Shown here: piece by piece, positions 6,170 through 64,000 of the stretch
Position numbering within the stretch: the first letter of the stretch is position 1
How the letters are laid out: every line of letters begins with the position of its first letter
Notes under the pieces: generated by a model
Databases searched by the model: none
Told to the model about the DNA's origin: nothing
Seen by the model: only the letters and a program-made list of their open reading frames with translations
NCBI GenBank assembly: GCA_963813435.1
Contig: CAWEYY010000002.1
Coordinates: forward strand, 554,793-618,792
DNA from: an uncultured Actinomycetes bacterium
Lineage (GTDB): Bacteria > Actinomycetota > Thermoleophilia > Gaiellales > Gaiellaceae
Direction: 5' to 3'
DNA length: 64,000 nucleotides
Position numbers and translations under genes: made by a program

Positions 6170-6290
6170 GGCGTCTCCTTTCGAGAAGAGGACGGGCGGT
6201 ATTGCCCGCTGACCGACAGCGTCGCGCGGCGCACCTGCGCAGGCATCGGGGTCGCCGCTGACCCGGTTGCCTGAAAACCCGTATTCGTGA

Positions 6291-6346
6291 GGCGCCGACT
6301 CGGCGGCGCCGACCATGGAGGCCGCACCGGCTAGGCCAGTGCGGCC
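6291..6346 (-). terminator. two GC-rich hairpins downstream of the hydrogenase operon
   Basis: GGCGCCG-N6-CGGCGCC (6291-6310) and GGCCGCAC-N11-GTGCGGCC (6320-6346). No U-tract. Confidence 0.3.
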
Positions 6347-6400
6347 GTCCAACGCACCGTCTCGAAATCGAGAGGTGTGCCGCTTCTCCCGGGAATGGCC

Positions 6401-14232: not shown

Positions 14233-15350
14233 GATACGTCGACGAGTTCCGCGACGGGGAGCTTGCGCAGAAGCTCGCGCGCGAGATCGAGACGCTGGTC
14301 GAGCCCGGCCGAGAGGTGAAGATCATGGAGGTCTGCGGCGGCCACACGCACGCGATCTACAAGCACGGCGTCGAGCACCTCGTCCCGCGCGAGGTCGACT
14401 TCGTCCACGGCCCCGGCTGCCCGGTCTGCGTGATTCCGATGGGACGGGTGGACGACGCGATCGCCCTCGCCGAGCGGCCCGAGGTGATCTTCGCGACCTT
14501 CGGCGACATGATGCGCGTCCCCGGCGGCCGCGGCTCGCTGCTGGAGGCGAAGGCCCGCGGAGCCGACGTGCGCATGGTCTACTCGCCGCTGGACGCGCTC
14601 GAACTGGCCCGGCGGAACCCGGACCGCGAGGTCGTCTTCTTCGCGATCGGCTTCGAGACGACGGCACCCGCGACAGCGTTGACACTGCTGCGGGCCCGAG
14701 CCGAGGACGTGCGCAACTTCTCGGCCTTCTGCAACCACGTGACGATCGGGCCTCCGCTGCGCGCGATCCTCGACTCGCCCGGCCTCCGGCTCGACGCGTT
14801 CATCGCTCCGGGCCACGTCTCGACGGTGATCGGCACGCGGCCGTACGACTTCATCGTCGACGAGTACGGCAAGCCCGTGGTCGTGACCGCCTTCGAGCCG
14901 CTCGACATCCTGCAGGCGGTGGTCATGCTGCTGCGCCAGTTGCGCGAGGGCCGCTGCGCGGTCGAGAACCAGTACACGCGCGTCGTGCGTCGCGACGGGA
15001 ACCCGCGGGCGCTCGCCGCGCTCGAGGAGACGATGGAGCTCCGCGACACGTTCGAGTGGCGGGGCCTCGGCTGGATCGAGCGGAGCGCGCTCCGTCTTAG
15101 GCCAGAGCTCGCCGACTGGGACGCCGAGGCCCGCTTCGAGCTACCGGGCAACCGCGTCGAGGACCCGAAGGCCTGCCAGTGCGGCGAGGTGCTGATCGGC
15201 GCGATCAAGCCGTGGGAGTGCCGCGTCTTCGGCACCGCCTGCACGCCCGAGCGGCCGATCGGAACCTGCATGGTCTCGAGCGAGGGCGCCTGCGCGGCCT
15301 ACTACAACTACGGGCGCCTCGCCCGGCCGCGCGACACCGTGACTGCGTGA
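14229..15350 (+). CDS. hypD: hydrogenase maturation protein HypD
   Basis: 373 aa. Motifs MEVCGGHTH, GPGCPVCV and CMVSSEGACAAYY. Confidence 0.9.
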   Translation: MRYVDEFRDGELAQKLAREIETLVEPGREVKIMEVCGGHTHAIYKHGVEHLVPREVDFVHGPGCPVCVIPMGRVDDAIALAERPEVIFATFGDMMRVPGGRGSLLEAKARGADVRMVYSPLDALELARRNPDREVVFFAIGFETTAPATALTLLRARAEDVRNFSAFCNHVTIGPPLRAILDSPGLRLDAFIAPGHVSTVIGTRPYDFIVDEYGKPVVVTAFEPLDILQAVVMLLRQLREGRCAVENQYTRVVRRDGNPRALAALEETMELRDTFEWRGLGWIERSALRLRPELADWDAEARFELPGNRVEDPKACQCGEVLIGAIKPWECRVFGTACTPERPIGTCMVSSEGACAAYYNYGRLARPRDTVTA

Positions 15351-15447
15351 GACGACGCTTGCGGAGTCTCCTTCAGGCCGGGCAGGCTTTGCCTGCTCGG
15401 CCGTCTGAACCGACCGATCGACACGTTTGCCGTCAGGAGCTCCCGCC
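15351..15447 (+). repeat. 97-nt intercistronic structured element, copy A (hypD-hypE)
   Basis: Aligns without gaps to 59314-59410 and 63333-63429 (both minus strand). The first hairpin starts inside the TGA. Long GC hairpin at 15372-15409. ATCGACAC core (GGTCGACAC in the other copies). AGGAG Shine-Dalgarno at 15435-15439. Confidence 0.8.
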
Positions 15448-16476
15448 GTGAGAAGAAGGCCGAGGCTCACGGATGAGGTCGTCACGCTTGCGCACGGCTC
15501 CGGCGGGAAGGCGACACGCGCGCTCGTCGAGAGCCTCTTCCTCGAGGAGCTGGGCAATCCGCTGCTGGAGCCGCTCGGCGACTCGGCGCTGCTCGAGCTG
15601 AACGGCTCCCGGATCGCGTTCACGACCGACTCGTACGTCGTCAAGCCGATCGTCTTTCCCGGCGGGGACATCGGCGAGCTCGCCGTGAACGGAACCGTGA
15701 ACGACCTCGCCGTCGCCGGTGCGACGCCGGTCGCGCTCTCGGCGGGCTTCGTCGTCGAGGAGGGCTTCGAGGTCGCCGAGCTGAGGCGCCTCGTCGCCTC
15801 GATGGCGCGCGCGGCCGAAGCCGCCGGAGTGGCCGTCGCAACCGGCGACACGAAGGTGGTCGAGCGTGGCAAGGCGGACGGGCTCTACGTGAACACGGCC
15901 GGGATCGGCCTCGTGCCTTCCGGGGTGGAGCTCGGCGCCGAGCGGGTGCGGGTCGGCGACCGCGTGCTCGTCTCGGGCACCCTCGGGGACCACGGCATGG
16001 CGGTGATGATCGCCCGCGGCGAGCTCGCGCTCGAGGTCGAGCTCGAGAGCGACACCGCCCCCGTGCACGAGCTCGCCGCGTCGCTGCTCGAGCTCGGCGG
16101 GGCCGTCCGCTGGCTGCGCGACCCGACCCGCGGCGGGCTCGCGACCGCGCTCAACGAGCTGGCGCAGGACGCGGAGCTCGCGGTGGCGCTGGAGGAGGCG
16201 GCCCTTCCGCTGCGGCCGACCGTCGTCGGCGCCTGCGAGATCCTCGGGATCGACCCGCTCTACGTCGCCAACGAGGGGAAGCTCGTCGCGGTGGTCGCGC
16301 CCGAGGCCGCCGACGACGCGCTGGAGCGCCTTCGCGGACACGAGCTCGGCGCCGAGGCGGCGATCATCGGCGAGATCCGGGCCGAGCCGGAGGGGCTTGT
16401 GCTGCTCGACACGGCGTTCGGCGGCAGCCGGATCGTCGACATGCTCGTCGGCGACCCGTTGCCCCGAATCTGCTGA
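15448..16476 (+). CDS. hypE: hydrogenase maturation protein HypE
   Basis: AHGSGG N-terminal motif and C-terminal PRIC. GTG 15448 preferred, 8 nt after AGGAG. The track ORF starts at TTG 15427. Confidence 0.9.
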   Translation: MRRRPRLTDEVVTLAHGSGGKATRALVESLFLEELGNPLLEPLGDSALLELNGSRIAFTTDSYVVKPIVFPGGDIGELAVNGTVNDLAVAGATPVALSAGFVVEEGFEVAELRRLVASMARAAEAAGVAVATGDTKVVERGKADGLYVNTAGIGLVPSGVELGAERVRVGDRVLVSGTLGDHGMAVMIARGELALEVELESDTAPVHELAASLLELGGAVRWLRDPTRGGLATALNELAQDAELAVALEEAALPLRPTVVGACEILGIDPLYVANEGKLVAVVAPEAADDALERLRGHELGAEAAIIGEIRAEPEGLVLLDTAFGGSRIVDMLVGDPLPRIC

Positions 16477-16480
16477 ACGG

Positions 16481-16498
16481 CTCGGAGCGTTTCCCGAG
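16481..16498 (+). terminator. short hairpin after hypE
   Basis: CTCGG-N8-CCGAG, starting 5 nt after the hypE stop. Confidence 0.3.
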
Positions 16499-16510
16499 AT
16501 CACGTCAAGA

Positions 16511-16584
16511 GTGTCGACCGGTCAGTGCAGACGGGAGCACGGGCTGGCCCGCGCTCCCTGACAACGGCGTCGCAAGCGAGCGCC
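16511..16584 (-). repeat. structured element, copy D (3' of the cytochrome c gene, no downstream gene)
   Basis: Its sense strand aligns without gaps to positions 1-74 of copies A, B and C. It shares CCGTCTG.AC.TGACCGGTCGACAC. Both hairpins are kept through compensatory changes. Confidence 0.7.
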
Positions 16585-17331
16585 TTACTTCAGCGTCTTG
16601 AGATAGGCGACGAGCGCCTTCAGGTCCTGGTCGCTGAGGATCCCGCCCCAGTGCGGCATGCTCACGATCGGTGCCTTGCCGATCACGCTGCCGCTGCGGA
16701 TCATGTCTGTGATCTTCTTGTCGGTGTTGAACTCCGCCCGGAAGTCGGCCCCCGTGAGCGGCGGGATCGCCTTGTCCTCCGAGAGCGGGTTCGGCACTCC
16801 GCCGAGGCCGTTCGGGCCGTGGCAGTTGATGCAGCCGTCCCGCACGTAGAGCGCCGCGCCCGCGACCTCGAGCCCCTGGCCCTGCGGCACTGTCGGTGGC
16901 GATGCGTCGGGAACGCTCGGCAAGCCTGCATGGATGTAGGCGACGAGCTGGTCCACCTGCCGCTTGGAGATGACCGCCCCCCAGACGGGCATGTACGGCT
17001 TGGTCGGGTTCGCAGACTCGCCGAGACCGTGGTTGATGATCTGCTGCAGCTGCGCGGATGTAAGCGCCTTGCCCACGGTCTTGAGCCCGGGCACGTCCGG
17101 CGAGACGCCGCCTTGCCCGTTGTCGCCGTGGCACTGGGCGCAGGCGAACTGGACGAACACGTGCGCGCCCGCGGCCACCTTCGGGTCGACGGGAGCTGCC
17201 GAGGCCGTCGTTGCCGCGCCGACCGTCTTCGTCTTCTTCGTGTAGTGGCCCGCGCCCCAACCGATCAGGCCGGCCACCACCACGAGCAGGACGACGACAA
17301 TAGCGCCGACGGCGAACAACCGGTTGCTCAC
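16585..17331 (-). CDS. membrane-anchored dihaem cytochrome c
   Basis: 248 aa. N-terminal TM helix and two CxxCH motifs (CAQCH, CINCH). Confidence 0.85.
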   Translation of the reverse strand: MSNRLFAVGAIVVVLLVVVAGLIGWGAGHYTKKTKTVGAATTASAAPVDPKVAAGAHVFVQFACAQCHGDNGQGGVSPDVPGLKTVGKALTSAQLQQIINHGLGESANPTKPYMPVWGAVISKRQVDQLVAYIHAGLPSVPDASPPTVPQGQGLEVAGAALYVRDGCINCHGPNGLGGVPNPLSEDKAIPPLTGADFRAEFNTDKKITDMIRSGSVIGKAPIVSMPHWGGILSDQDLKALVAYLKTLK

Positions 17332-34453: not shown

Positions 34454-37282
34454 TTACGGGGAAGCACCGATTCGCCGGCGGTGCCAGCGGCGGAGTTCGT
34501 CGGTACCCCAGACGATCACTGGAAACACGGCCAGCAGGAGCAGATCGGTCGCCGGGAGCGGCCTCGTCCCGAAGACGGCCTGGAATGCCGGCACGTAGAG
34601 GAGCGCCGCCGTGAACACCAGCTCGAACGCGATCCCCCACAGCAGCGCGCGGTTCGACCAGACGCCGACCGAGCGAAGCGAAGCCTTCGACGTGCGCGCC
34701 GCGAATGCGGTCCCCACCTGGCAGGCGACGATCCCGGCGAAGGTCATCGTCGTCGCCTGGAGGTAGACGTGGTGCAGCGAGCTGCCGACGGCCACCGAAT
34801 CACCCGGCGACCAGCCGGCGCGGAGGAGGACGAAGAAGAAGCCGCCCATCACGAGCCCGGCCGAGATCCCGCCCATGAAGCCCCAGGCACGGACGAGCAG
34901 CTCCCGGCTGATCACTCCTTCGCGCGGGCTGCGCGGCGGCCGCTCCATCAGGCCGGGCTCCGCCGGCTCCTGGCCCAGGGCAAGCGCGGGCAGGGTCTCG
35001 GTGCCCAGGTCGATCGCCAGGATCTGGAGAACGGTCAGCGGCAACGGCACGGCGCCGCCCGAGAGCGCAAAGACGAGGAACGGTACGACCTCGGGAGTGG
35101 CGTGGGCGAAGATGTAGAGGATGAACTTGCGGACGTTGTCGTAGACGCGGCGTCCAGCCTGCACCGCGACCACGATCGTGGCGAAGTTATCGTCGGTCAA
35201 CACCAAAGTCGCCGCCTGGCGCGCGACCTCCGTCCCGCTCTGTCCCATCGCGACGCCGATGTCGGCGCGACGGAGCGCGGGCGCGTCGTTCACCCCGTCG
35301 CCGGTCATCGCCACGACCTCGCCCTCGTCGCGCAGCGCGTCCGCGATCCGGAGCTTCGCTTCGGGTGAGCTGCGCGCGAACACGAGCGCGGGCTCGGTGC
35401 GGAGCAGCTCGCCGAGAGCCGCGTCGCTCAGACGGTCGAGCTCCCGGCCCGTGACCAGCCGGACGCCGTCGCCGACGATCCCGACCCTCCGGGCGATCGC
35501 GACTGCGGTCGGGCCTGCGTCGCCCGTGATCACAACGACGCGAATGCCCGCGCCGTAGCAGCGCGCGACGGCCTCGGCCACCTCGGGGCGCGGCGGGTCG
35601 AAGAGGGCGACGAGCCCGAGGAAGACGAGGTTGCGCTCGACGTCCTCGCGCTCCTCCGGGAGCGGAGTGCCGGCGGGCAGACGCGCCGTGGCCGCCGCGA
35701 GGATCCGCAACCCCTCCCCCGCCCAGCGCTCGCTGCGATCGAGGATCGACTTCCGCTCGTCGGCGGAGAGCGGCCGCTCCGCTCCGTCGGTGCCGAGAAT
35801 CAGCTCGCAACGATCGAGCGCCTCCTCCGGCGCTCCTTTCACGTGGACGTACAGGCCGTCAGGCCGCTCGTCGATCGTGGACATCAGCCTCCGCTCCGCA
35901 TCGAAGTGGAACTCCTTCTTTCGCCCGGACTCGCGCGTTGCGAGCGTGACGTCGGCTCCGAGGAGCGCTGCGGCCCTGAGCAGCGCAAGCTCGGTCGGAT
36001 CGCCCGCATCGGGACCGAGCTCCGCGTTGTTGCACGCCGCGAGCGCCTGCGCGAGCCTCTCTAGCGGAGCCGGGACACGTGAGGGTGCGGCTGAGGCATC
36101 GCTTGCGATGCCGGCATCAGGACGCGCGGGCTCTGCCTGTGCGTCCGTCTGAAATGACCGGTCGAAACGAGCGAGCTCATCCGAAGCCGCCACTGAGAAC
36201 TCGCCGGCATCCGTCCAGACCGCTGTCGCCTGCATGCGGTTCTCGGTCAGCGTCCCCGTCTTGTCCGTGCAGATGACCGTCGTCGAGCCGAGCGTCTCGA
36301 CCGCGCTCAGCCGCTTGACGAGGGCTCCCGAGCGCGCAAGCGCGCGGACGCCGACCGCCAGCGCAAGGGTGATCGTGGGCAGCAAGCCCTCCGGCACGTT
36401 GGCGACGATGAGGCCGATCGCGAACGTGAGCGCGTCGGCTGGAGGAAGCCCGGCGACGAGCGCCCCGAGCGGGAAGAAGACGAAGCCGGCCGCAACGGAG
36501 ACACCAGCGATCAGCCAGGCCACCCGCTTGACCTGAACCTCGAGGGGACTCTCCTCGCGTCGGACCCGCTGCGAGAGCGCCGCGATCCTCCCGAGCTCCG
36601 TGCGCATCCCGGTCGCGACCACAACGGCCCGCGCCTCCCCGCCGATGCAGGCGCTGCCGCTGAAGACGAGGTCGCGCGCCTCCAGGGGCGGAGCCTGCGC
36701 GTCGACGAACTCCGCCGAGCGCGAGACCGGGACCGACTCGCCTGTCAGCGTGGAGACATCGACCTCGATCGCGCCCTCGAGCAGCCGTGCGTCGGCCGAG
36801 ATGCGGTCGCCCTCGGCAAGCAGAAGGATGTCGCCAGGCACGAGCAGTCGCGCCTCGATCACGGTGCGCCCGCCGTCGCGGAGGACGCTCGCGTGCGGCG
36901 GCAGGTAGCTCTCGAGCGCCTCCACGGCGCGCTCGGCCTGACGCTCCTGCAGGAAGGCAAACGCCGCGTTCAGGAGGATGACGCCGACGATCGCAGCCGC
37001 CAGCACGGCCGTGCCTGCAACCAGGGCCAGCAGGGCCGCGACCCAGAGGAGGAGCGCGAGTGGATGCGTCAGCTGGCGGGCCACCTCGCCGGGCCACCGC
37101 CGGCCGGAGGGACGGGCTAGCTGGTTGGAACCCTCGGTGAGCAGTCGCCGCTCGGCCTCGCGGCTCGACAGGCCCTCGGGGGTCGTCCGGAGATGTCGCA
37201 GCAGCAGGTCGGCAGGCTCGTGCAGCTCGAGGGTGGGGTCTCCGGAGTCGACTGCGGCACGGCCGTTCGTCTGTTGAGCCAT
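34454..37282 (-). CDS. P2-type cation-transporting ATPase (CtpF/Ca-ATPase-like)
   Basis: Motifs [15 protein letters not shown] and [11 protein letters not shown], with 10 TM helices. Start set at MAQQTNG; the track ORF extends to 37351. Confidence 0.9.
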
Positions 37283-37452
37283 CGCGTCCAGATCGTGTCG
37301 GCGCGGCCCATCCCGTCCATCGGGAGCACCGCGGATCACGGCTGCGCGCAACTACCGAATCCGTAGTTAGCCGAGCCGGGGATCGGCGAGCGGCCCGATG
37401 CCCCGGCCACGACACGCGAGAACGATGGGCGCAACACGACGAGGAGGACCCG

Positions 37453-38766: not shown

Positions 38767-38828
38767 GGAGGGGCCGCGCCTGCGCGGCCCCTCCATCCCC
38801 AGCAGAAGGCCGCCTCGGGCGGCCTTCT
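38767..38828. terminator. two consecutive perfect GC hairpins between convergent genes
   Basis: GGAGGGGCCGCG-CCTG-CGCGGCCCCTCC (38767-38794) and AGAAGGCCGCC-TCG-GGCGGCCTTCT (38804-38828). Confidence 0.6.
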
Positions 38829-38954
38829 TCGCACATGCGGCGATCTCGGCCGATTGCCGGCTTTCCAAGCGACGGTGTAACCCACTCAAGCCCGGAAGGC
38901 GGTCGCTTGCGACGCCGTTCAAGAGGCCGCGCCGGCTTGGCCGGTGCGGCCGTC

Positions 38955-39596
38955 TTACTTCTCGAGGAGCCCCAGGTCGAGGGCGTAGCGGACGAGCTCG
39001 GCGCGGCTCGAGAGGCGGAGCTTCTGCATGATGTGCGCGCGGTGCGTCTCGGCCGTGCGCACCGAGATGAAGAGCTGCTTGGCGATCTCCTGGTTGGTGT
39101 GCCCAAGCGCGAGGAGGCGCAGCACCTCCCGCTCGCGGTCGGAGAGCGGATCCTCCTCGGCCCGCCTGCGCTCCTCGGTCTCCGCCGCGACGAGCCGCGC
39201 GCCGAGCTCCGGGTGGACGTAGCGCCCGCCTCCCGCGACCTCCACGATCGCGGTCACGAGCTCCGAGTCGGCCGCCTCCTTGAGGACGTAGCCGCTCGCG
39301 CCCGCCGAGAACGCCTCGCGCACGTAGCGCGGGTCGTCCTGCATCGACAGCACGAGCACCTTCAGATCCGGGGTCTCGTGCAGCAACTGGGGGACGACCT
39401 CGAGCCCGCTCTGGTCGGGCATCACGACATCCAGCAGAACGACGTCGGGCTTGAGCGAGCGCGCCTCGAAGACCGCCTCGCGAGCGCTTCCGGCCTCGCC
39501 GACGGCCTCGAGCTCCGGCTCGGCGTCGATCAGGAGCTTGAGCCCGGCGCGGACGACCGCATGGTCGTCGACGATCAGGATCTTCGTCTTGCTCAT
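38955..39596 (-). CDS. NarL/LuxR-family response regulator (DosR/DevR-like)
   Basis: 213 aa. Receiver domain plus the LSDREREVLRLLALGHTNQEIAKQLFISVRTAETHR HTH. Confidence 0.9.
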   Translation of the reverse strand: MSKTKILIVDDHAVVRAGLKLLIDAEPELEAVGEAGSAREAVFEARSLKPDVVLLDVVMPDQSGLEVVPQLLHETPDLKVLVLSMQDDPRYVREAFSAGASGYVLKEAADSELVTAIVEVAGGGRYVHPELGARLVAAETEERRRAEEDPLSDREREVLRLLALGHTNQEIAKQLFISVRTAETHRAHIMQKLRLSSRAELVRYALDLGLLEK

Positions 39597-41314
39597 CGCA
39601 GCGGCACGTCCGCAGCGAGCGTCGTCCCCGCGCTCGGGCTCGACTCGATGCGCAAACGTCCTCCCAGCAGCCCCAGCCGCTCCCGCATCGCGATCAGGCC
39701 GAAGCCGTCTCCGCCCGAGCCCGGGTCGAAGCCCTGTCCGTCGTCCTCGACGACCGCGGTGACGAAGCCCTCCATGCGCGTGAGCGCGATGCTGACGTGT
39801 CTTGCGCGCGCGTGCTTGACGACGTTCGTCAGCGACTCCTGGACGATCCGGTAGAGCGCGGTCTCGATCTCGCCGGGCAGACGCTCCGCGCCGAGGGCGG
39901 CGCCGAATTGCACCTCGATCCCGGTCTGCTCGGCGAACGACGAGGTCAGGCGCTCGAGCGCGGCCACGAGCCCGAAGTCGTCGAGGGCGCTCGGGCGCAG
40001 CTCGACTGCAAGGCGGCGCACATCCTGGAGAGTCGCGACCACGAGCTCGCGCAGGCGAGCCGTCGCCTCACGCGACTCGTCGGTCTGGAGCGTCTCCTCG
40101 AGGTTCTTGAGCCCGAGCAGGATCGAGGTCAGCGCCTGGCCGGTCTCGTCGTGCAGCTCGCGCGCGAGCCTGCGGCGCTCGACCTCCTGGGCGTCGACCA
40201 CGCGTCGGAACGCGTCCCGCGCGATCCTCTCGGAGAGGTCGACGGCGACCGCGGCACGGTTGGCGAACGTCTCGGCCAGGCGGAGGTCGGTGTCGGAGAA
40301 GCGCGGCTCCTCGCCGAGCTTGTCGTGCGCCTCGATCACGCCGATCGCCTCGGTGCGCACGAGCAGCGGGACCCAGAGCCCGGTGCGCGCGCCGATCGCC
40401 CGCGTCAGTTCGGGGTTCACGTCGGGGTCGTCGAGGACGGAGTCGACCCGCTCGCTCACGCCCCGCTCGAGCACGCGGCCGCTCTTCGACGCCGAGCGCG
40501 CGACAACGCGGCCGACGATGCCCTCGCTCCCCTCACCCGCGGCCGCCGCGACTCGCAGCTCCTGCCCGCCGGCGGGCAGGAGCACCGTGACCACGCGCGC
40601 GTCCAGCAGCTCGCGCAGCCGGCGGGCGATCAGATCGAGCAGCCGGTCGAGGTCGGTCTCCGTCGCGAGCGCGTTCCCGACCTCGTTCAGCGACTCGAGC
40701 TGCTGCGACCAGCTCGTCGCCGCCTCGTACAGGCGCGCGTTCTCGATCGCGACCGCAGCCTGGCCGGCGAGCAGCGTGACGAGCTCCTCGTCCTCGGCGG
40801 TGAAGTCCTCCTCCCCGGCCTTCTCGGTCAAGTAGAAGTTCCCGTACGCTGTCCCGCGGAGCAGGATCGGAACGCCCAGAAAGGAGCGCATCGACGGGTG
40901 GTTGGCGGGGAAGCCGACCGAGCGCGGGTCCTGGGCCAGGTCGTGCAGGCGGAGCGGCTTCGCGTCCGCGATCAGCGCGCCGAGGATCCCGCGGCCGCGG
41001 GGGAGGTCGCCGATCGCCGCCTGCGTCTGCGCGTCGATCCCCGTCGTGATGAAGTGCTCGAGCTCCGAGCCGCCCTCGTCGATCACGCCGAGCGCGCCGT
41101 AGCGGGCACCGGTGAGCTCGGCGGCCTTCTCGACCAGCCGCTGCAGCAGGACGTCGAGGGAGAGCTCGGACGTGATCGCAACACCGGCCTCGACAAGGGC
41201 GCGGAGCCGTTCTTCGCTCGAGCCGACCGCCGCCACGATGGCGAGCGTACCGCCTTCGGGCGCAGGTCCTGCGGGTTTTCCGCGCTCCGTTCCGTGCCTC
41301 TTCCGATGGCACAA
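39593..41314 (-). CDS. GAF-GAF-HisKA_3-HATPase sensor kinase (DosS/DosT-like)
   Basis: 573 aa. The first GAF has LPRGRGILGALI...PLRLHDL...GFPANHPSMRSFLGVPI, much like the DosS/DosT haem-GAF region as I recall it. H-box HDETGQALT. The start is uncertain. Confidence 0.85.
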   Translation of the reverse strand: MCHRKRHGTERGKPAGPAPEGGTLAIVAAVGSSEERLRALVEAGVAITSELSLDVLLQRLVEKAAELTGARYGALGVIDEGGSELEHFITTGIDAQTQAAIGDLPRGRGILGALIADAKPLRLHDLAQDPRSVGFPANHPSMRSFLGVPILLRGTAYGNFYLTEKAGEEDFTAEDEELVTLLAGQAAVAIENARLYEAATSWSQQLESLNEVGNALATETDLDRLLDLIARRLRELLDARVVTVLLPAGGQELRVAAAAGEGSEGIVGRVVARSASKSGRVLERGVSERVDSVLDDPDVNPELTRAIGARTGLWVPLLVRTEAIGVIEAHDKLGEEPRFSDTDLRLAETFANRAAVAVDLSERIARDAFRRVVDAQEVERRRLARELHDETGQALTSILLGLKNLEETLQTDESREATARLRELVVATLQDVRRLAVELRPSALDDFGLVAALERLTSSFAEQTGIEVQFGAALGAERLPGEIETALYRIVQESLTNVVKHARARHVSIALTRMEGFVTAVVEDDGQGFDPGSGGDGFGLIAMRERLGLLGGRLRIESSPSAGTTLAADVPLR

Positions 41315-41343
41315 GCGACGCGCAGGGCGCAGACTTCGGCTCG

Positions 41344-43998
41344 ATGAGCGTTTTCACGCATTCGGTCGGCGCGGTCGACGTGATCCTTCGGGACGGCGCG
41401 ACGCTGCGGCTGCGTGGGCCGACGGCCGACGACCTCGACGCGCTCGAGGCGTTCTTCACCGGGCTCTCAGACCGGAGCTTCTACCTGCGCTTTCACGGCG
41501 CGCGCACGGTCGACCGGGCGCTCGTCGAGCACTTCGCCGACCCGGACTGGCGCGATCGTGGCGTCCTCGTCGGCGTCCTCGCGGACGAGATCGTCGCCGT
41601 GGCGGAGTTCATGCGGCTGCGCGACGAGCGGAGCGCCGAGGTGGCGTTCGCGGTCGCGGACGAGCATCAGGGGCGCGGGGTCGGCACCCGGCTCCTGGAG
41701 CAGCTCGCCCTGCGAGCCTCTTCGGCCGGGATCGAGCGCTTCGTCGCCCAGGTGCTGCCCGAGAACTCCGCGATGCTCGCGGTCTTCAGGGACGCGGGCT
41801 TCGACACCGCACGCGAGCTCGACCGCGGCGAGATCGAGGTCGCGTTTCCGATCGCCGTGACGGAGACGTTCCGGGCGCGCGTGGACGAGCGCGATCACCG
41901 CGCCGTGACCGCCTCGCTGCGGCCGTTCTTCGAGCCGCGCTCGCTGGCGGTCGTCGGCGCGTCGCACCGGCGAGGGTCGATCGGTGGAGAGCTGTTTCGC
42001 AATGTCCTGGCCGCCGACTTCGAGGGCGCGGCCTATCCGGTCAACCGCGACGGCGAGCCCGTCGGCGGCGTCCGTGGCTTCCGATCGCTCGAGGAGCTGC
42101 CCGAGGTCGTCGATCTCGTCGTGATCTGCCTCCCAGGACAGCACGTCCTCGGAGCGGCCGAGGAGGCGCTCGCGCTCGGGATCAAGGCGCTGTGCGTGAT
42201 CTCGTCAGGCTTCGCCGAGATCGGCGCGGAGGGCGCCGAGCGGCAGGCTCGACTCCTGGAGCTCGTCCGCGCGCACGGTGGACGGCTGGTCGGCCCGAAC
42301 TGCCTCGGGATCGCGATCCCGCCGCTCGGGCTGAACGCCACCTTCGGCCCGAGGCCGCTCCCGCCGGGGCCGATCGCGTTCTCCTCCCAGAGCGGCGCGC
42401 TCGGCCTGGCGCTGCTAGAGAAGGCGTCCGAGCGCCGCCTCGGCTTCTCGGCGTTCGTCTCGATCGGGAACAAGGCCGACGTCTCCTCGAACGACCTGCT
42501 CGAGTGGTGGGAGGACGATCCCGCCAGCGAGGTCGTGCTGCTCTACCTCGAGTCGTTCGGCAACCCGGGCAAGTTCAGCCGCCTCGCGCGGCGCGTGGCG
42601 CGGCGCAAGCCGATCCTCGCGCTCAAGGCGGGGACAACCGGCGCCGGCGCGAAGGCCGCGAGCTCGCACACAGCCGCGCTCGCGAGCTCGGACGCCGCGG
42701 TCGACGCGCTCTTCCACCAGGCGGGCGTGCTCCGCGCGCGCACTCTCGAGGAGCTCGTCGATGCCGCGGCGCTGCTCTCGCGCCAGCCGCTCCCGCGTGG
42801 GAGCCGCGTCGGCGTGATGACCAACGCGGGCGGGCTGGGGATCCTCTGCGCCGACGCCTGCGAGTCGGCCGGTCTCGAGCTCCCGGAGCCGGCCGAGGAG
42901 ACTCGGGCCGCGCTGGCCGAGCTGCTCCCGGCCGAGGCGAGCGTCGCGAACCCCGTGGACATGCTCGGCGGGTCGACGGCAGAGACCTACGCGAAGGTAA
43001 TCCCGCCGCTCCTGGCCGACAGGCGGCTCGATGCGCTGATCGTGCTCTTCGTCCCGCCCGTCGTCGCGGGCGCGGACGAGGTGGCGGTCGCGATCAGGGA
43101 CGCCGTCAGCGCGTCGGGCTCGAGCAAGCCCGTTCTCGCCGTCGTGATGAGCGCGGAGGGAACGCCAAGCGTCCTGCTCGAAGACGACTGCCCGGTCGCG
43201 AGCTTCGAGTACCCGGAGTCGGCAGCCCGCGCGCTCGGCCTCGCGGCGTCGCGCTCGGAGTGGCTCAGGCAGCCGGCCGGGGTGGTTCCGGAGCTCGAGG
43301 GCGTCGACCGGGCGGGCGGGCGGCGCATCGTCGAGGAGGCGCTCGCCTCTGCCGAGGGTTGGCTCGAGCCGGACGTGATCCGGGCGCTGCTGGAGGACTA
43401 CGGCGTCCCGCTCGTACCCGAGCGCGTGGCGACGAGCGCAGACGAGGCCGCAAGCGCGGCGAATGAGCTCGGCTACCCGGTCGTCGTCAAGACAGCGGAG
43501 GCCGGCGCGCACAAGACCGAGAAGGGCGGGGTCGCGCTCGATCTCCGGAACGAGGAGCAGCTGCGCGCGGCCGTCGAGCGAATCGGCGCGCCGGTGCTCG
43601 TCCAGCCCTACGTCAGCGGCGGCGCGGAGCTGCTCGCGGGCGCCGTCCAGGACCCGGTCTTCGGGCCGCTCGTCGCCTTCGGCCCCGGAGGCGTGCTCGC
43701 GGAGCTGATCGGCGACGCGAGTTTCCGGCTCGCGCCGCTCACGAACGTCGACGCACGGGAGCTCGTGCTCGGCGGAAAGGCGGGCCGGCTCGTTCGCGGC
43801 TTCCGCGGCGCCCCGGCCGCCGACGCCGATGCTCTCGTCGATCTCGTCCACCGCCTCTCAGCGCTCGCGGAGGATCTCCCCGAGGTCGCCGAGCTCGACC
43901 TCAACCCCGTGCTCGCGCTCCCCGACCGCTGCGTGGTCGTCGACGCTCGCATCCGCGTGGGCGCAGCGGAGCCGAAGCGCTCCGCCAAGACGTGGTGA
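41344..43998 (+). CDS. GNAT acetyltransferase fused to an NDP-forming acyl-CoA synthetase-like module (PatA-type protein acetyltransferase)
   Basis: 884 aa. N-terminal GNAT (QGRGVGTRLLE), then CoA-binding, ligase-CoA and ATP-grasp-like regions. Confidence 0.8.
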   Translation: MSVFTHSVGAVDVILRDGATLRLRGPTADDLDALEAFFTGLSDRSFYLRFHGARTVDRALVEHFADPDWRDRGVLVGVLADEIVAVAEFMRLRDERSAEVAFAVADEHQGRGVGTRLLEQLALRASSAGIERFVAQVLPENSAMLAVFRDAGFDTARELDRGEIEVAFPIAVTETFRARVDERDHRAVTASLRPFFEPRSLAVVGASHRRGSIGGELFRNVLAADFEGAAYPVNRDGEPVGGVRGFRSLEELPEVVDLVVICLPGQHVLGAAEEALALGIKALCVISSGFAEIGAEGAERQARLLELVRAHGGRLVGPNCLGIAIPPLGLNATFGPRPLPPGPIAFSSQSGALGLALLEKASERRLGFSAFVSIGNKADVSSNDLLEWWEDDPASEVVLLYLESFGNPGKFSRLARRVARRKPILALKAGTTGAGAKAASSHTAALASSDAAVDALFHQAGVLRARTLEELVDAAALLSRQPLPRGSRVGVMTNAGGLGILCADACESAGLELPEPAEETRAALAELLPAEASVANPVDMLGGSTAETYAKVIPPLLADRRLDALIVLFVPPVVAGADEVAVAIRDAVSASGSSKPVLAVVMSAEGTPSVLLEDDCPVASFEYPESAARALGLAASRSEWLRQPAGVVPELEGVDRAGGRRIVEEALASAEGWLEPDVIRALLEDYGVPLVPERVATSADEAASAANELGYPVVVKTAEAGAHKTEKGGVALDLRNEEQLRAAVERIGAPVLVQPYVSGGAELLAGAVQDPVFGPLVAFGPGGVLAELIGDASFRLAPLTNVDARELVLGGKAGRLVRGFRGAPAADADALVDLVHRLSALAEDLPEVAELDLNPVLALPDRCVVVDARIRVGAAEPKRSAKTW

Positions 43999-56780: not shown

Positions 56781-57758
56781 TCAGCCGTTGTCGGTGAACG
56801 AGGGTCCGAGTGGGATCAGCTCCTCGAGCTCGTCGAGCGCCCCGGTCAGGTCGAGCTCCGCAGCCTGTGCGTTCTCTTCCATGTGGCCGCCGTTGCGGCT
56901 GCCCGCGATCGCCGCAGTTACGCCCGGCTGGTGCAGAACCCATGCGATTGCGACCTGAGCGACGGTCGCTCCGAGCCGCTCGGCGATCGGGCGCAGGGCG
57001 TTCGCGACCGCAAAGCTCCGCTCGACCTTGCCCGGGCCGAGAAGGCGCTTGAAGAACGCCGACTCGATCCAGGGGCCGGTCCACACGGCGAGCACCTCTT
57101 CGGGGGTCTTCCCGCTCAGGATCCCGCTCGCGAGCGGCTCGAAGATCGTGACCGCGATTCCGAGCTCGCCGCAGCTTGCGCCGTACGGCCGGTCATCGAC
57201 GTAGTCGATCAGGTTCAACCCGACCTGGACGACGTCGACCGGGCGCTGAGCATGGCAGCGCTCGACGTCGGCGAGCTGGTAGTTAGACATCCCGATGGCG
57301 CGTACCAGTCCCTGCTCGACGAGCTCGGCCATGGCGCCCCAGGTCTCCTCGAGCGGCACCTCGCCGGTCCGATCCGGCCAGTGCAGGAAGTAGACGTCGA
57401 TCTGCTCGCGTCCGAGCCGCTGCAGGCTCTGACGACAGGCCCGGTGCACCTGTTCGCGGCGAAAGCCGCTCCCGCCGCCCGTGATCCCACCGCCCGGCGC
57501 CGCCTTGGAGGCAACGAGGAAGTCGGAAGGGGCGCTCGCGAGCGCTTCCCCGATGACCGCCTCGTTCCGCGTCGCCAGGTAGTTCTCGGAGGTGTCGAGC
57601 CAGTTGACGCCGGCCTCGATCGCGCTCGCGATGACGTGTGCCGCCCGCTCGGGATCCGGCACCTCCTCCGGCTCGGGCCCGAGCTCGTAGCCGCCGAGGC
57701 CAATGCGGGAGAGCGAGACCCCGCTGGAGCCCAGCGGGCGAAGCTCCATCCCGCTCAC
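56781..57758 (-). CDS. aldo/keto reductase
   Basis: 325 aa. AKR blocks LGGYELG, DTSENY and the MSNY region. GTGA overlap with the pobA stop. Confidence 0.85.
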   Translation of the reverse strand: MSGMELRPLGSSGVSLSRIGLGGYELGPEPEEVPDPERAAHVIASAIEAGVNWLDTSENYLATRNEAVIGEALASAPSDFLVASKAAPGGGITGGGSGFRREQVHRACRQSLQRLGREQIDVYFLHWPDRTGEVPLEETWGAMAELVEQGLVRAIGMSNYQLADVERCHAQRPVDVVQVGLNLIDYVDDRPYGASCGELGIAVTIFEPLASGILSGKTPEEVLAVWTGPWIESAFFKRLLGPGKVERSFAVANALRPIAERLGATVAQVAIAWVLHQPGVTAAIAGSRNGGHMEENAQAAELDLTGALDELEELIPLGPSFTDNG

Positions 57759-58936: not shown

Positions 58937-59313
58937 TCCCCGTCGCCGGAGCCCGCGACCTCCTGGAAGACCGCGAACGCGCTGTTGGCCGCAGGGACGC
59001 CGCAGTAGACGGCCGTCTGGAGGAGGACCTCCTTGATCTCGTCGAGCGTGAGGCCGTTCCTCCGCGCCGCGCGGATGTGCATGCCGAGCTCGTCGAAGCG
59101 GCCGAGCGCCACGAGCGCGGTCAGCGTGATGCAGCTGCGCGTTTTGCGGTCGAGGCCCTCGCGCGCCCAGATCTCGCCCCAGGCGTAGCGCGTGATGAAG
59201 TCCTGGAAGTCGCGCGTCAGGTCGGTCGTGCGCTCGACCGCGCGGTCGACGTGCTCGTCGCCGAGCACCTCGCGCCGGATCTTCATGCCACGCTCGTAGG
59301 TTTCGTCGCTCAT
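58933..59313 (-). CDS. pcaC: 4-carboxymuconolactone decarboxylase
   Basis: 126 aa, carboxymuconolactone decarboxylase family pattern (YAWGEIWAREGLD...TAVYCGVPAA). Confidence 0.9.
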   Translation of the reverse strand: MSDETYERGMKIRREVLGDEHVDRAVERTTDLTRDFQDFITRYAWGEIWAREGLDRKTRSCITLTALVALGRFDELGMHIRAARRNGLTLDEIKEVLLQTAVYCGVPAANSAFAVFQEVAGSGDGE

Positions 59314-59410
59314 CGATCAACCTTCTGACGGAGAGCGTGTCGACCGGTCAGCTCAGACGGCCGGCCAGGCAGAGCCCGCCCGGCCTGAAGGAGACGAGGC
59401 AAGCGTCGTC
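59314..59410 (-). repeat. 97-nt intercistronic structured element, copy B (pcaD-pcaC)
   Basis: Fills exactly the stop-to-start gap. About 77 of 97 positions are identical to copy A by my count. GAAGG Shine-Dalgarno 7 nt before the pcaC ATG. Confidence 0.8.
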
Positions 59411-60155
59411 TCAGGACCGGACCTCCTGAAGCACGGCGGCCGTCACCGCGTCGGGTTGCTCCACGTTCGCCAGATGGGCCGCATGTGGAACGACGACCGT
59501 CTCGGCTCTCGGAATGCCCTCGCTCAGCGTCTCGACCACGTCGGCCTGTGTCACCGGATCCTCCTCGCCGACGATCACGAGCGTGGGCGTCTCGATCTCG
59601 TCCAGGCGGTCGCGGAAGTCGAAGGCGCCGATCGCCTCGCAGCAGCGGGCGTAGCCCTCCGGCTCGATCGTGAGCAGGTCATCGAGGTAGCTCTGCGCAA
59701 CCGGGGTGTCTCTGAAGCTCGGCGTGAACCAGCGCTCGCGCAGACGGTCGACGAGGGCACCCGTGCCCTCCTCGCGCACCAGCGCGGCCCGCTCGGCCCA
59801 CTCCTCACTCGTGCCGAGCTTCGCGCCCGTGCAACAGAGCGTCAGCGTTTCGATCCGCTCGGGCGCCATAGCGGCGAGACACATTCCGACCATCCCGCCC
59901 AGCGAGAGGCCGCAGAACGAGAACCGATCGCCGTCGATCAAGCTCGAGGACCGCGCATGCGATCTCCTCGACCGACACCGGCCCGTCGGGCACCGGCGAG
60001 TCGCCGTGGCCCGGATGGTCGTGGCGCAGGACGCGGAAGCGGGCGGCGAACGCGTCGAGCTGCGGCTCCCAGAGGCGTGTCGTCGTCCCGAGCGAGTTCG
60101 AGAGCACGAGCAGCGGCGCGTCTTCGGGGCCGTCGAGGCGGCGGGCGAGCTTCAC
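59411..60155 (-). pseudogene. pcaD: 3-oxoadipate enol-lactonase carrying a 1-nt frameshift
   Basis: The N-terminal 72 aa (VKLARRLDGPEDAPLLVLSNSLGT...AVLEL) are in one frame and the C-terminal 176 aa (IDGDRFSFCGLSLGGM...) in another. They join at 59940-59941. Confidence 0.75.
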
Positions 60156-62609: not shown

Positions 62610-63332
62610 CTAGCTCCGTCCTTTCGTTTTCAGGCCTCGAAGCGTGACGAGCTCCTCCTCGGTCGGCGGCTCGGTCTCGCCGAGCCCGTCCGCGACCCGG
62701 AGCTCCCAGCCGGTCGCCTCGTGTGCCTGGTCGACGCCGACACCCGGATGAAGCAGCGTCAACGTCAGCTCCCGCGTCTCCGGGTCCGGCTCGAGGATGC
62801 CGAGATCCGTCACGACCAGCTCGACCCGGTCGCCAACGCTCGTGAGGAAGTCGAGCTTCTCGACGAACGCGCGCGGGGTCTGCCTCAGCATCACGAACAC
62901 CTTCCTCGCGGCGGTCGCGATCTCGGGAGCGCCGCCGCCACCGGGGAGACGCACCTTCGGCGAGTCGTAGTCGCCGATCACCGTGCTGTTCAGGTTCCCC
63001 CACCGGTCGATCTGGGCGGCGCCGAGGAAGCCGACGTCCATGTGGCCGCCCTGCAGCCAGTAGGCGAACATCTCCGGAACCGACACGACCGAGTCAGCGG
63101 TCTCGGCCAGCTCGCCGTCGCCGATCGACAGCGGCAGCTCGATCGGCTTCGCGCCGATCGTCCCGCTCTCGTAGATGAGCACGCAGCCGGGCGCGTGCGT
63201 GGCCCGGGCGAGGTTGGCGGCGAGGCTCGGCAGGCCGATCCCGACGAAGCAGACATCACCGTCCGTCAGTCGCCGCGCGGCCTCGACGGCCATCATCTCG
63301 TCGGCTGTGTAGGTGACGGTCGACGTTGTCAC
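62610..63332 (-). CDS. pcaJ: 3-oxoadipate CoA-transferase subunit B (CoA-transferase family I)
   Basis: 240 aa. Pattern VCFVGIGLPSL...YESG...LPGGGGAPE. Function assigned from its position in the pca operon. Confidence 0.75.
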   Translation of the reverse strand: MTTSTVTYTADEMMAVEAARRLTDGDVCFVGIGLPSLAANLARATHAPGCVLIYESGTIGAKPIELPLSIGDGELAETADSVVSVPEMFAYWLQGGHMDVGFLGAAQIDRWGNLNSTVIGDYDSPKVRLPGGGGAPEIATAARKVFVMLRQTPRAFVEKLDFLTSVGDRVELVVTDLGILEPDPETRELTLTLLHPGVGVDQAHEATGWELRVADGLGETEPPTEEELVTLRGLKTKGRS

Positions 63333-63429
63333 AAGCCAACCTTCTGAAGGAGAACGTGTCGACCGCTCGGTTCAGACGGCCGCACGGGCAGAGCCCGTCC
63401 GGCCTGGAGGAGACGACACATGCGTCGTC
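63333..63429 (-). repeat. 97-nt intercistronic structured element, copy C (pcaI-pcaJ)
   Basis: Fills exactly the stop-to-start gap. Perfect 8-bp first hairpin and a 6-bp inner stem with compensatory changes relative to copy A. GAAGG Shine-Dalgarno 7 nt before the GTG. Confidence 0.8.
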
Positions 63430-64000
63430 TCATGCGGCCAGCACGTGCCTTTCCATCCAGGTGGCGAACTTGTCGCGGTCGCGGCTGATCGGATCCCAGG
63501 CCACGTAGAACTCGTTGTCGCGGTCGTAGTAGTTGGCCGCGTAGGAGGGGTGCGCACCGCGCGGCACGAGCGAGACCGCGCCGACCACCCAGCCGGGGAT
63601 CACGGTCGCGCCGGGCCGGGGCTCGAGCTCGTCGACGATCTCCTCGACGGTCACGATCGAGCGAGCCGACGCGAGGACGGTCTCCTTCTGGACGCCGAGG
63701 ATCCCCCAGAGCTGGACGTTCCCCTTCCGGTCGGCCCTCTGGGCGTGGACGATCCCGACGTCCGGCCGGTGCGCGGGAACCGCCGCGAGCTCCTCGTCCG
63801 TGAACGGGCAGGTGACCTTCCCGACCCGCGTGTGGGCCGCGAGGTCGCCGTGGCCGTAACCGCGCAGCACGCCGAACGGCAGGTTCGCCGCCCCGGCCGC
63901 GTAGGCGGTCGCCATCCCTGCGTGCGAGTGCTCCTCGATCTCGAGCGGCACCGGCCAGCCGTGCTCGACCGCGTCCCGGAGCCGGTGCAGAGAGCCGACC
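63430..64000 (-). CDS. pcaI: 3-oxoadipate CoA-transferase subunit A, 3' part; the gene continues beyond the right edge
   Basis: The frame stays open to the window end. The sequence ...LRGYGHGDL...VHAQRADRKGN... is CoA-transferase subunit A-like. Confidence 0.75.
   Translation of the reverse strand, partial: VGSLHRLRDAVEHGWPVPLEIEEHSHAGMATAYAAGAANLPFGVLRGYGHGDLAAHTRVGKVTCPFTDEELAAVPAHRPDVGIVHAQRADRKGNVQLWGILGVQKETVLASARSIVTVEEIVDELEPRPGATVIPGWVVGAVSLVPRGAHPSYAANYYDRDNEFYVAWDPISRDRDKFATWMERHVLAA

Follow-up and report, generated by a model that had tools for sequence, protein, structure and literature searches.

A new family of small mobile repeats at gene boundaries in uncultured Gaiellaceae

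Introduction

Does the pair of hairpins that directly follows the stop codon of a dihaem cytochrome c gene in an uncultured Gaiellaceae bacterium belong to that gene, as a signal at the 3' end of its RNA, or is it one copy of a sequence that moves between genomes? The gene lies on the minus strand of a 64,000-nt stretch of DNA (assembly GCA_963813435.1, contig CAWEYY010000002.1, positions 554,793 to 618,792), which was analysed over its whole length and is called the window below; all coordinates are those of the window unless a locus is named. The element in question occupies 16511-16587, between the cytochrome c gene and the convergent hypE gene. A preliminary description, based on the letters of the window alone, had read it as the fourth copy of a structured element, placed at the 3' end of a gene, and had taken the replacement of a stem with its pairing intact as evidence that secondary structure is under selection. 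What that description observed was confirmed, and its interpretation was partly supported. The element belongs to a new family of small mobile repeats whose behaviour is closest to that of MIRUs (mycobacterial interspersed repetitive units), and which also has features of the repetitive extragenic palindromes (REPs) and the Rickettsia palindromic elements (RPEs). Most probably it is a non-autonomous mobile family with a unit of about 100 nt, limited in the examined data to uncultured Gaiellaceae and Gaiellales.

Results

The copy between the cytochrome c gene and hypE

The copy comprises 74 nt at 16511-16584 on the minus strand and starts directly after the TAA (16585-16587) of the cytochrome c gene; its sequence is exactly as first written. 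It scored 75.6 bits against a covariance model of the family (E = 1.5e-15), and its fold contained both hairpins, with an RNA energy of -37.7 kcal/mol (z = -2.4) and a z value of -1.4 for DNA. The stem of hairpin 2 is GGGAGC/GCTCCC, against GGCCG/CGGCC in the other copies. The states of two of its pairs, 39-63 (G-C) and 40-62 (A-T), occur in 1 of 115 copies each; since both are paired, the fully compensatory change described for this stem is real. The same holds for the compensated hairpin 1, GGCG(C)TCG/CGACGCC, which has one bulged C and is of the GGCRY type. The alignment to the other copies had been called gap-free; it contains two cancelling single-base indels, one base more in hairpin 1 and one base less in the loop of hairpin 2, and because these cancel, the 3' box does stand at the unchanged offset. 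The part downstream of this box, the supposed carrier of a Shine-Dalgarno motif, had been thought absent. A 26-nt tail exists at 16485-16510, of a different subtype that is typical of copies between convergent genes, the tails of which it resembles. A terminator-like T-run follows the hairpins on neither strand, and no terminator or promoter consensus was found near the copy (16300-16800).

Copies in the window

The window was searched with a pattern for the conserved 3' box (CCGTCTGNACTGACCGGTCGACAC, up to three mismatches), with 100 dinucleotide-preserving shuffles of the window as control. Five matches were obtained against 0 expected from the shuffles, and the five copies found in this way align across about 78 nt. 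The covariance model gave seven copies in the 64 kb, the two extra ones being divergent (6287-6368 and 38896-38960), so the copy at the cytochrome c gene is not the 'fourth', as it had been called. A further model match at 57183-57266, in coding sequence and scoring 20 bits, was taken as chance. The two divergent copies belong to a third subfamily, in which AAGAGGCCG replaces TCAGG and the 3' box is different or missing; it also occurs in L031, L063, L070, L006 and other loci (L numbers denote the loci compared in this work).

Similarity by chance in DNA of 70% G+C has a negligible probability. The possibility that the resemblance is no better than in shuffled high-G+C sequence had been named at the outset, and the shuffles gave 0 matches to the five observed; the E value of the cytochrome c copy and the slid-partner and shuffle controls given below, which lay far under the observed pairing, point the same way. 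The genes flanking the copies are unrelated to each other and one copy lies inside a coding sequence, that of a P-type ATPase, whose reading frame continues through the reverse complement of the element. A gene-specific regulatory RNA is therefore disfavoured. Two gene starts also need correction. The mechanical open reading frame (ORF) start of hypE (15427-15450) is too far upstream, the start being most likely the GTG at 15448, in the RTGA rebuilt by the element. For the ATPase gene the mechanical start at 37351 (region about 37282-37351) is likewise too far upstream, and a downstream Met is most likely the start.

Two hairpins and a 3' box conserved on the sense strand

Each unit begins with a 5' edge at a stop-like T[AG]AG, followed by hairpin 1, whose loop is CUUG, and by hairpin 2; the invariant box CCGTCTG...GACCGGTCGACAC and a variable tail of about 23-26 nt complete it. 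Across the family hairpin 1 has 7-9 bp and hairpin 2 has 11-12 bp, both G+C-rich. Pair statistics were derived from a MAFFT alignment of 115 copies, with 3' partners slid by 1-3 columns and 500 shuffles as controls. The core of hairpin 1 (7 bp) was 95.9% paired with double changes in 5/7 pairs, and the core of hairpin 2 (11 bp) was 95.2% paired with double changes in 9/11, which together gives changes on both sides in 14/18 pairs. When the partners were slid, pairing fell to 34-44%, and 0/500 shuffles attained the observed values. RNAalifold, run without structure input, returned the same two hairpins with 17 pairs, 13 of which had compensatory changes. Both the folding of the alignment and the explicit pair counts thus agree with the earlier claim that secondary structure is under selection, the hairpins being kept through compensatory changes. 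The statement that pairing is kept at every position needs one correction, because the copy at 63356 (copy C of the preliminary description) has one G.G mismatch in hairpin 2.

Among the 18 core pairs G.T was found 144 times and A.C 13 times (p = 4e-29), an excess which places the pairing constraint on the sense strand in single-stranded form, be it RNA or DNA, rather than on the duplex. Identity in the conserved CUUG tetraloop is 0.93. Directly behind hairpin 2 comes CCGTCTG; the search pattern itself enforced this, and in 42 pattern-free matches it is largely retained, with an identity of 0.66 across the segment. Variability in the 3' box was 0.15, 0.14 and 0.10 by codon position. This lack of a third-position excess rules out a peptide constraint as the cause of the conservation, which is at the nucleotide level.

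Within the invariant box of the cytochrome c copy and of all others, the palindromes GACCGGTC and GTCGAC overlap and both are perfect. They include the recognition sequences of AgeI (ACCGGT) and SalI (GTCGAC). A dimeric DNA-binding protein or RNA-RNA pairing could conceivably make use of them.

Occupied and empty sites in close relatives

Close relatives lack four of the window copies (those at the cytochrome c gene, the hypD/hypE junction, the ATPase gene and a GerE-type regulator gene) at the corresponding sites. From the cytochrome c stop to the hypE stop there are 108 nt in the window and 0 nt in L126 (cytochrome c identity 92%), 10 nt in L121/L122 (89%), 13 nt in L123/L124 (83%) and 11 nt in L125 (82%). 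The window has kept a remnant of the old spacer, CCGAGCCGT, beside the hypE stop, comparable with CCCGAGCCG in L125. The copy thus entered a spacer of 0-13 nt, immediately behind the cytochrome c stop. Contigs encoding the protein P0124 (86% identity) likewise have a cytochrome c gap of 108 nt, which is known by its length; a metagenome scan for orthologous occupied cytochrome c sites returned six chance matches only. L125, with its empty site, is on the same contig as L065, which has copies, so genomes bearing the family are polymorphic site by site.

At the hypD/hypE junction L121, L123 and L125 read TGC GTGA GACGAAGG, with a 4-nt stop/start overlap of the two genes, and the window reads TGC GTGA, a 101-nt insert (GACGACGC...CCGCC GTGA) and then GAAGAAGG. 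In the ATPase, 32-33 extra residues are carried by the window protein and by the 99%-identical P0004, and orthologues at 95%, 93%, 88% identity and lower lack them at exactly the same position. The DNA flanks of this site are 100% and 98.6% identical to those in L118, with 139 nt in the window against 40 nt in L118. Because the ATPase insert includes the tail, the tail is part of the inserted unit. The window and L118 share 95-98% identity along about 14 kb, and the breaks in this similarity are two element copies and an unrelated alcohol dehydrogenase indel. The copy at 38896 is missing from L118 and L119, the ATPase and GerE-regulator sites are empty in L118-L120, where the flanks are 98-100% identical, and L118-L120 hold no copies at all. 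These comparisons show that the element has been gained or lost between genomes that are 95-98% identical, and that the copies which survive are placed precisely at the borders of genes or, within genes, in frame.

Such in-frame copies inside genes were documented twice, in the P-type ATPase gene and in a maltokinase gene of a Gaiellaceae metagenome-assembled genome (MAG) (L048, DATFQN010000009.1). The copy at 3047-3124 of L048 is in the sense orientation, its 5' stop is now AAA, and it adds about 38 residues between HGDYHLGQVLL, which holds the HGDxHLGQ catalytic loop, and DFEGEP; the two motifs are contiguous in a maltokinase of solved structure (PDB 4U94). Head-to-tail arrays of two to three units with a period of about 101-104 nt were found in L007, L010, L038, L041, L092 and L115, and in L115 the chaining by -4 overlaps is kept.

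The view of the element as a 3'-end RNA signal specific to its gene therefore had to be given up, because the repeat is dispersed and polymorphic for insertion, with the cytochrome c site empty in four orthologous loci. A riboswitch, a regulon-specific regulatory RNA or an intrinsic terminator of the cytochrome c gene would explain why two stable hairpins come right after a stop codon, and is nevertheless very improbable. Rfam 15 gave no match at gathering score anywhere in the window, and permissive scans, made for two copies, gave only E > 1. The flanking genes (hyp, cytochrome c, CoA-transferase, CMD-family, P-type ATPase, maltokinase, rplK/nusG) are unrelated, the hairpins have no T-run behind them, and orthologues have the site empty.

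Junction architecture, subtypes and edges

Sense-oriented copies at junctions of co-directional genes make up 58/116 copies. About 37 of 54 co-directional copies share one arrangement, in which the upstream TGA lies exactly 26 nt before CAGG and is overlapped by A/G/TTG, and this start opens a frame of 34 codons ending in a TGA that overlaps the downstream RTG 23 nt past the 3' box. The cytochrome c copy is convergent and so falls outside this stop-frame-start relay architecture. In L002, L082, L087 and L055 the length variants have net indels of +/-3 nt that leave the arrangement intact, and in L114 both edges have moved by 2 nt, yet the 101-nt spacing from TGA to TGA is retained. Between convergent genes the stop of the opposite gene is typically found 19-31 nt past the 3' box.

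The subtypes differ with this context. The ratio of GAGAC to GGCRY in hairpin 1 is 42 : 13 in co-directional copies against 2 : 20 in convergent ones (Fisher p = 5e-8), and a Shine-Dalgarno-like tail is present in 39/58 co-directional copies against 1/25 convergent copies (Fisher p = 3e-8). The stem replacement at the cytochrome c gene has to be read in this light: the compensation stands, but part of the difference reflects subfamilies correlated with genomic context and not only evolution at the locus.

A T[AG]AG or TAGG tetramer stands at the 5' edge of 94/116 copies. Of all copies, 53% also have such a tetramer 22-25 nt past the 3' box, where random windows have it in 7%. When both are present, the tetramers at the two edges are identical in 42/52 (permutation mean 32.5, sd 1.9), but this concordance is confounded, since operon copies require a TGA at each end in order to function. 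Two readings suit the edge tetramers: a target duplicated over 4 nt, or insertion on the 3' side of TRAG. By hand count, the 5' and the 3' RTGA agreed in their first base in 17/38, where about 15 were expected. This absence of a clear correlation suggests that the element itself supplies the purine of the rebuilt start codon. A long target duplication (20-27 nt) was also considered and rejected, as identity between flank and tail was found in 5/117 copies, all five in tandem arrays.

The edges bear on a further explanation, namely that the repeat is a classical miniature inverted-repeat transposable element (MITE), mobilised by a DDE transposase that duplicates a 4-bp T[AG]AG target. Elements of the IS5 family use targets of the YTAR type. 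The agreement of the T[AG]AG-type tetramers on both sides would fit such a MITE, as would CTGAG on both sides of the ATPase copy and GTGA(GA) on both sides at the hypD/hypE junction. We consider it distinctly unlikely. By eye, with no systematic scan made, the consensus ends have no convincing terminal inverted repeats (6/8 bases at best, in one subtype), strand-specific hairpins are not needed by the site of a transposase acting on double-stranded DNA, and no related insertion sequence was found among the bracketed ORFs in about 1 Mb.

Orthologous copies and the question of host benefit

Five pairs of copies share a locus in different genomes, with flanks 79-92% identical. Three of the orthologous pairs were compared in parts, a comparison biased by the fact that both copies had to be detectable. 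Identity is 91-96% in the cores and about 78-79% at the third-codon positions of the flanks (two pairs, gapless flanks), and the tail is only about 40-50% identical in two pairs. These values point to constraint on the core, or to homogenisation between copies, with a free tail. A different case is given by L047 (4642-4719) and L070 (5357-5434), which have two different subtypes at the same junction within flanks about 90% identical. Five stem pairs differ and all of them are still paired, and the 27-nt 3' box is identical at 27/27 positions, so that either a hot spot has received insertions repeatedly or one copy has been replaced by another.

Such conservation is also what would be seen if the element were primarily a cis-acting RNA of benefit to the host, namely a 3'-untranslated-region (3'-UTR) barrier or terminator between convergent genes and a translation-relay or processing site in operons, kept locus by locus and merely distributed by mobility. 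The persistence of pairing on the transcribed sense strand alone, the conserved CUUG tetraloop, the similarity of the orthologous cores while the tails drift, and the intact pairs and box of L047 and L070 in spite of their different subtypes are in favour of it, as are the copies at RTGA junctions, all of them sense-oriented and equipped with a Shine-Dalgarno motif and a start codon. The empty convergent sites are moreover too short for a terminator. On the other hand, close relatives have no element at any of the four tested window sites, so none of the copies is individually required, and copies are present inside coding sequences and antisense to genes. The hairpins lack a T-run, the gene contexts are mutually unrelated, and the orthologue comparison favours copies that stayed detectable. 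A primary role of this kind is possible and is the strongest of the alternatives weighed, though we think it unlikely compared with a mobile repeat.

Family size and host range

The family was scanned with one genome per GTDB species and a pattern that fixes CAGG and the 3' box only and leaves the hairpins free. At least 117 loci were found. All but two lie in MAGs that carry the label Gaiellaceae, Gaiellales or unclassified Actinomycetota. One of the two, a Nitrospira locus, was rejected as a chance match without hairpins. The other, L028 (CAVRWY010000008.1), is labelled Gemmatimonadales; it is the same element-bearing locus, with matching flanks, as L045 (CAVWFB010000004.1) from an Actinomycetes MAG, and its label, to judge by this match, probably arose from an error in binning or classification. 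The covariance model found at least 139 copies in 704 kb of Gaiellaceae loci, about 36 of which had not been selected by the pattern, and the density of the repeat is about one per 5-9 kb. No paper connecting Gaiella with repetitive elements was found in the literature searched, and the motif string was met only in unrelated primer sequences.

Features of the window

The coordinates of the features are collected in Table 1. Two other places in the window attracted attention during the comparison with related loci. At 38795-38830, between two convergent genes, there is a perfect G+C-rich hairpin (AGAAGGCCGCCTCGGGCGGCCTTCTT), which L118 and L119 have in conserved form as well. It has no relation to the repeat family and probably serves as a bidirectional terminator. 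At 41254-41373 the window has 120 nt where L118 and L119 hold about 1.2 kb with a zinc alcohol dehydrogenase gene (L118 4920-6153). The surroundings of this indel, near 41.3 kb, are 95-98% identical, and no element copy is present at the junction.

Table 1 Features of the cytochrome c/hypE site and further copies of the repeat in the window
Feature	Position	Strand	Description
Dihaem cytochrome c gene	16585-17331	-	Pfam matches: Cytochrome_CBB3 and, twice, Cytochrom_C
TAA stop of the dihaem cytochrome c gene, also 5' edge triplet of the element	16585-16587	-	5' edge consensus of the family: T[AG]AG
Hairpin 1, GGCG(C)TCG-CTTG-CGACGCC	16566-16584	-	From the fold; 7 pairs, 1 bulged C, G(CUUG)C loop
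Hairpin 2, GGGAGCGCGGG-CCAG-CCCGTGCTCCC	16533-16558	-	11 pairs, 2 of them fully compensated and unique to this copy
Conserved 3' box, CCGTCTGCACTGACCGGTCGACAC	16511-16534	-	CGTC 'tag' adjoining hairpin 2; palindromes GACCGGTC and GTCGAC
Element tail, subtype without Shine-Dalgarno motif, TCTTGACG...GGGAAACGCTC	16485-16510	-	26 nt; compared with tails of copies in convergent context
Remnant of the pre-insertion spacer, CGAGCCGT, beside the hypE stop	16477-16484	-	Matches the empty-site spacer of L125, GTCCCGAGCCG
TGA stop of the convergent hypE	16474-16476	+	hypE gene 15448-16476
Copy between hypD and hypE	15347-15451	+	GTGA, 78-nt core, 23-nt Shine-Dalgarno tail, GTGA; 101-nt insertion in a former GTGA overlap
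Copy inside the P-type ATPase gene (34454-37351, -)	36091-36196	+	Antisense, in frame; about 32-33 residues added
Copy between an alpha/beta-hydrolase gene and a CMD-family gene	59310-59414	-	Ends in the ATGA start of the CMD-family gene; copy position 59337
Copy between the CoA-transferase subunit A and B genes	63329-63433	-	ATGA ... GTGA; copy position 63356
Third-subfamily copy without the standard 3' box	38896-38960	+	Abuts the TTA (reverse-strand TAA stop) of a GerE-type regulator gene; absent in relatives
Divergent third-subfamily copy	6287-6368	+	Long spacer; antisense to both flanking genes

Discussion

How such a repeat could spread

We infer that the family spreads by a mechanism which reads the sense strand as a single strand. 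By analogy with REP/RAYT and IS200/IS605, the most likely route would be that the hairpins in single-stranded DNA are cut by an enzyme of the HUH/Y1 type beside the CGTC tag. The hairpins and the adjacent CGTC/GACCGGTCGAC box are probably recognised on this single-stranded intermediate, and insertion would take place 3' of a TRAG target. Only copies that are 'harmless by design' would then persist. At RTGA overlaps the element would restore the upstream TGA and supply the 34-codon relay frame and the Shine-Dalgarno-like tail, and a purine of the element would rebuild RTGA, by which translational coupling could continue. Between convergent genes the gap would be filled by the second subtype, which has no Shine-Dalgarno motif. 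At the cytochrome c site the likely outcome is a stable pair of hairpins in the 3' UTRs of two convergent genes that were once nearly spacerless, and these hairpins are regarded as an effect of the insertion and not its cause. When transcribed, they probably act as a 3'-end barrier protecting the cytochrome c and hypE mRNAs, as a side effect rather than as the reason for which the element exists.

Several points weigh against the reading of the family as non-autonomous mobile repeats moved in this way. All copies stem from MAGs. A transposase or an autonomous parent was not found, the ORFs bracketed by inverted copies being housekeeping genes, and no split element and no true solo 3' box was found in about 1 Mb, a search in which the hairpin-1 regular expression was too permissive to help. 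The 3' TAAG expected at the cytochrome c site is not recognisable, and the ATPase junction lies inside a hypervariable loop where the cut is not clean and a target duplication is not cleanly shown. To these are added the confounded concordance of the edges, the frame-preserving length variants, which at 5/9 are not significantly enriched (p = 0.14), and the high identity of the orthologous cores, under which host-level selection in place is possible. As to the enzyme, no RAYT or Y1 gene was found among the ORFs bracketed by copies in the approximately 1 Mb covered, a result obtained with no genome-wide PF01797 search made. An arrangement like that of a REPtron was also considered and rejected, since the ORFs between inverted copies are ordinary genes.

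A bolder form of the mechanism can be formulated, in which the repeat is a portable 'gene-junction cassette' co-opted by the host: the relay subtype, with its stop codon, relay ORF, Shine-Dalgarno motif and start codon, would keep operon genes coupled in translation, the second subtype would insulate convergent genes, and both would be spread by a single-strand-specific enzyme of the HUH type, which would have stop codons (TRAG) as its target and would recognise the hairpins together with the CGTC/GACCGGTCGAC box. It is offered tentatively, as a doubtful proposal. If it were true, it would give the CGTC-type repeats, for which no transposase is known, a model that is tractable and follows a clear rule in the choice of its target.

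Relation to known repeat systems

The MITEs of the Correia/NEMIS, ERIC, BOX and RUP families are abundant elements of about 100-150 nt which are co-transcribed and form stable RNA structures able to alter the fate of mRNA. They are bounded by terminal inverted repeats and produce target duplications of a defined kind, for instance TA. The Gaiellaceae repeat differs from them in that no terminal inverted repeats were seen by eye (no systematic scan was made) and in that its pairing is strand-specific.

In a recent review MIRUs are reported to insert at start codons, with an internal ORF coupled to the gene at a spacing of -4 nt (PMC12548453, citing Supply et al. 1997), and the co-directional copies of the Gaiellaceae repeat match this arrangement. 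Both are short intra-operon repeats oriented with the genes (58/116 copies here), both have an internal ORF coupled to the downstream gene through a 4-nt stop/start overlap (PMC12548453), and both are apparently mobile with minimal effect on expression and form head-to-tail tandem arrays. The Gaiellaceae family, however, is found in another actinobacterial class; its two hairpins covary strongly, its 3' box is invariant, and it includes a convergent-end subtype and in-frame intragenic copies. It is likened to MIRUs by organisation only, as an analogy and not a membership.

Hairpins tagged with CGTC, including the Rickettsia repeats RPE-4 and RPE-6, have been described as a class to which no dedicated transposase belongs (Di Nocera et al. 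2013, PMC3733652). The Gaiellaceae repeat shares with REPs and CGTC repeats a hairpin at one end of which CGTC is conserved and left unpaired (PMC3733652) and a position downstream of stop codons, of both co-directional and convergent genes, with some copies intragenic and transcription plausible. With the CGTC repeats it also shares, in the approximately 1 Mb covered, the lack of a dedicated transposase nearby. REPs, in contrast, are single hairpins of 20-40 bp, usually in inverted dimers, and the CGTC families have stems of 8-9 bp starting with A/T pairs, a loop of 4-5 nt and a CCA tail, and are not reported from Actinobacteria (PMC3733652). The Gaiellaceae unit, with about 100 nt, two different G+C-rich hairpins, a long non-palindromic box, a tail and head-to-tail arrays, lies outside the size and stem definitions of both. 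From RPEs it has the habit of lying in frame in protein-coding genes as a hairpin repeat and adding a peptide segment, RPE-4 and RPE-6 also having the CGTC tag (PMC3733652). RPEs are A+T-rich and specific to Rickettsia, whereas the Gaiellaceae copies are mostly at gene boundaries.

Conclusions

For the annotation of these uncultured soil Actinomycetota, which are a widespread group, the finding means that what appears to be a structured regulatory RNA is really a very abundant mobile repeat, and that gene callers will misplace start codons, as in hypE, and extend or split ORFs, as in the ATPase and the maltokinase. For the biology of small repeats, the family unites behaviours known separately: the relay at -4 overlaps of MIRUs, the strand-specific hairpins after stop codons of REPs and the in-frame insertion of RPEs. 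It also provides many pairs of occupied and empty sites for asking how repeats spread without a linked transposase and without damage to operons.

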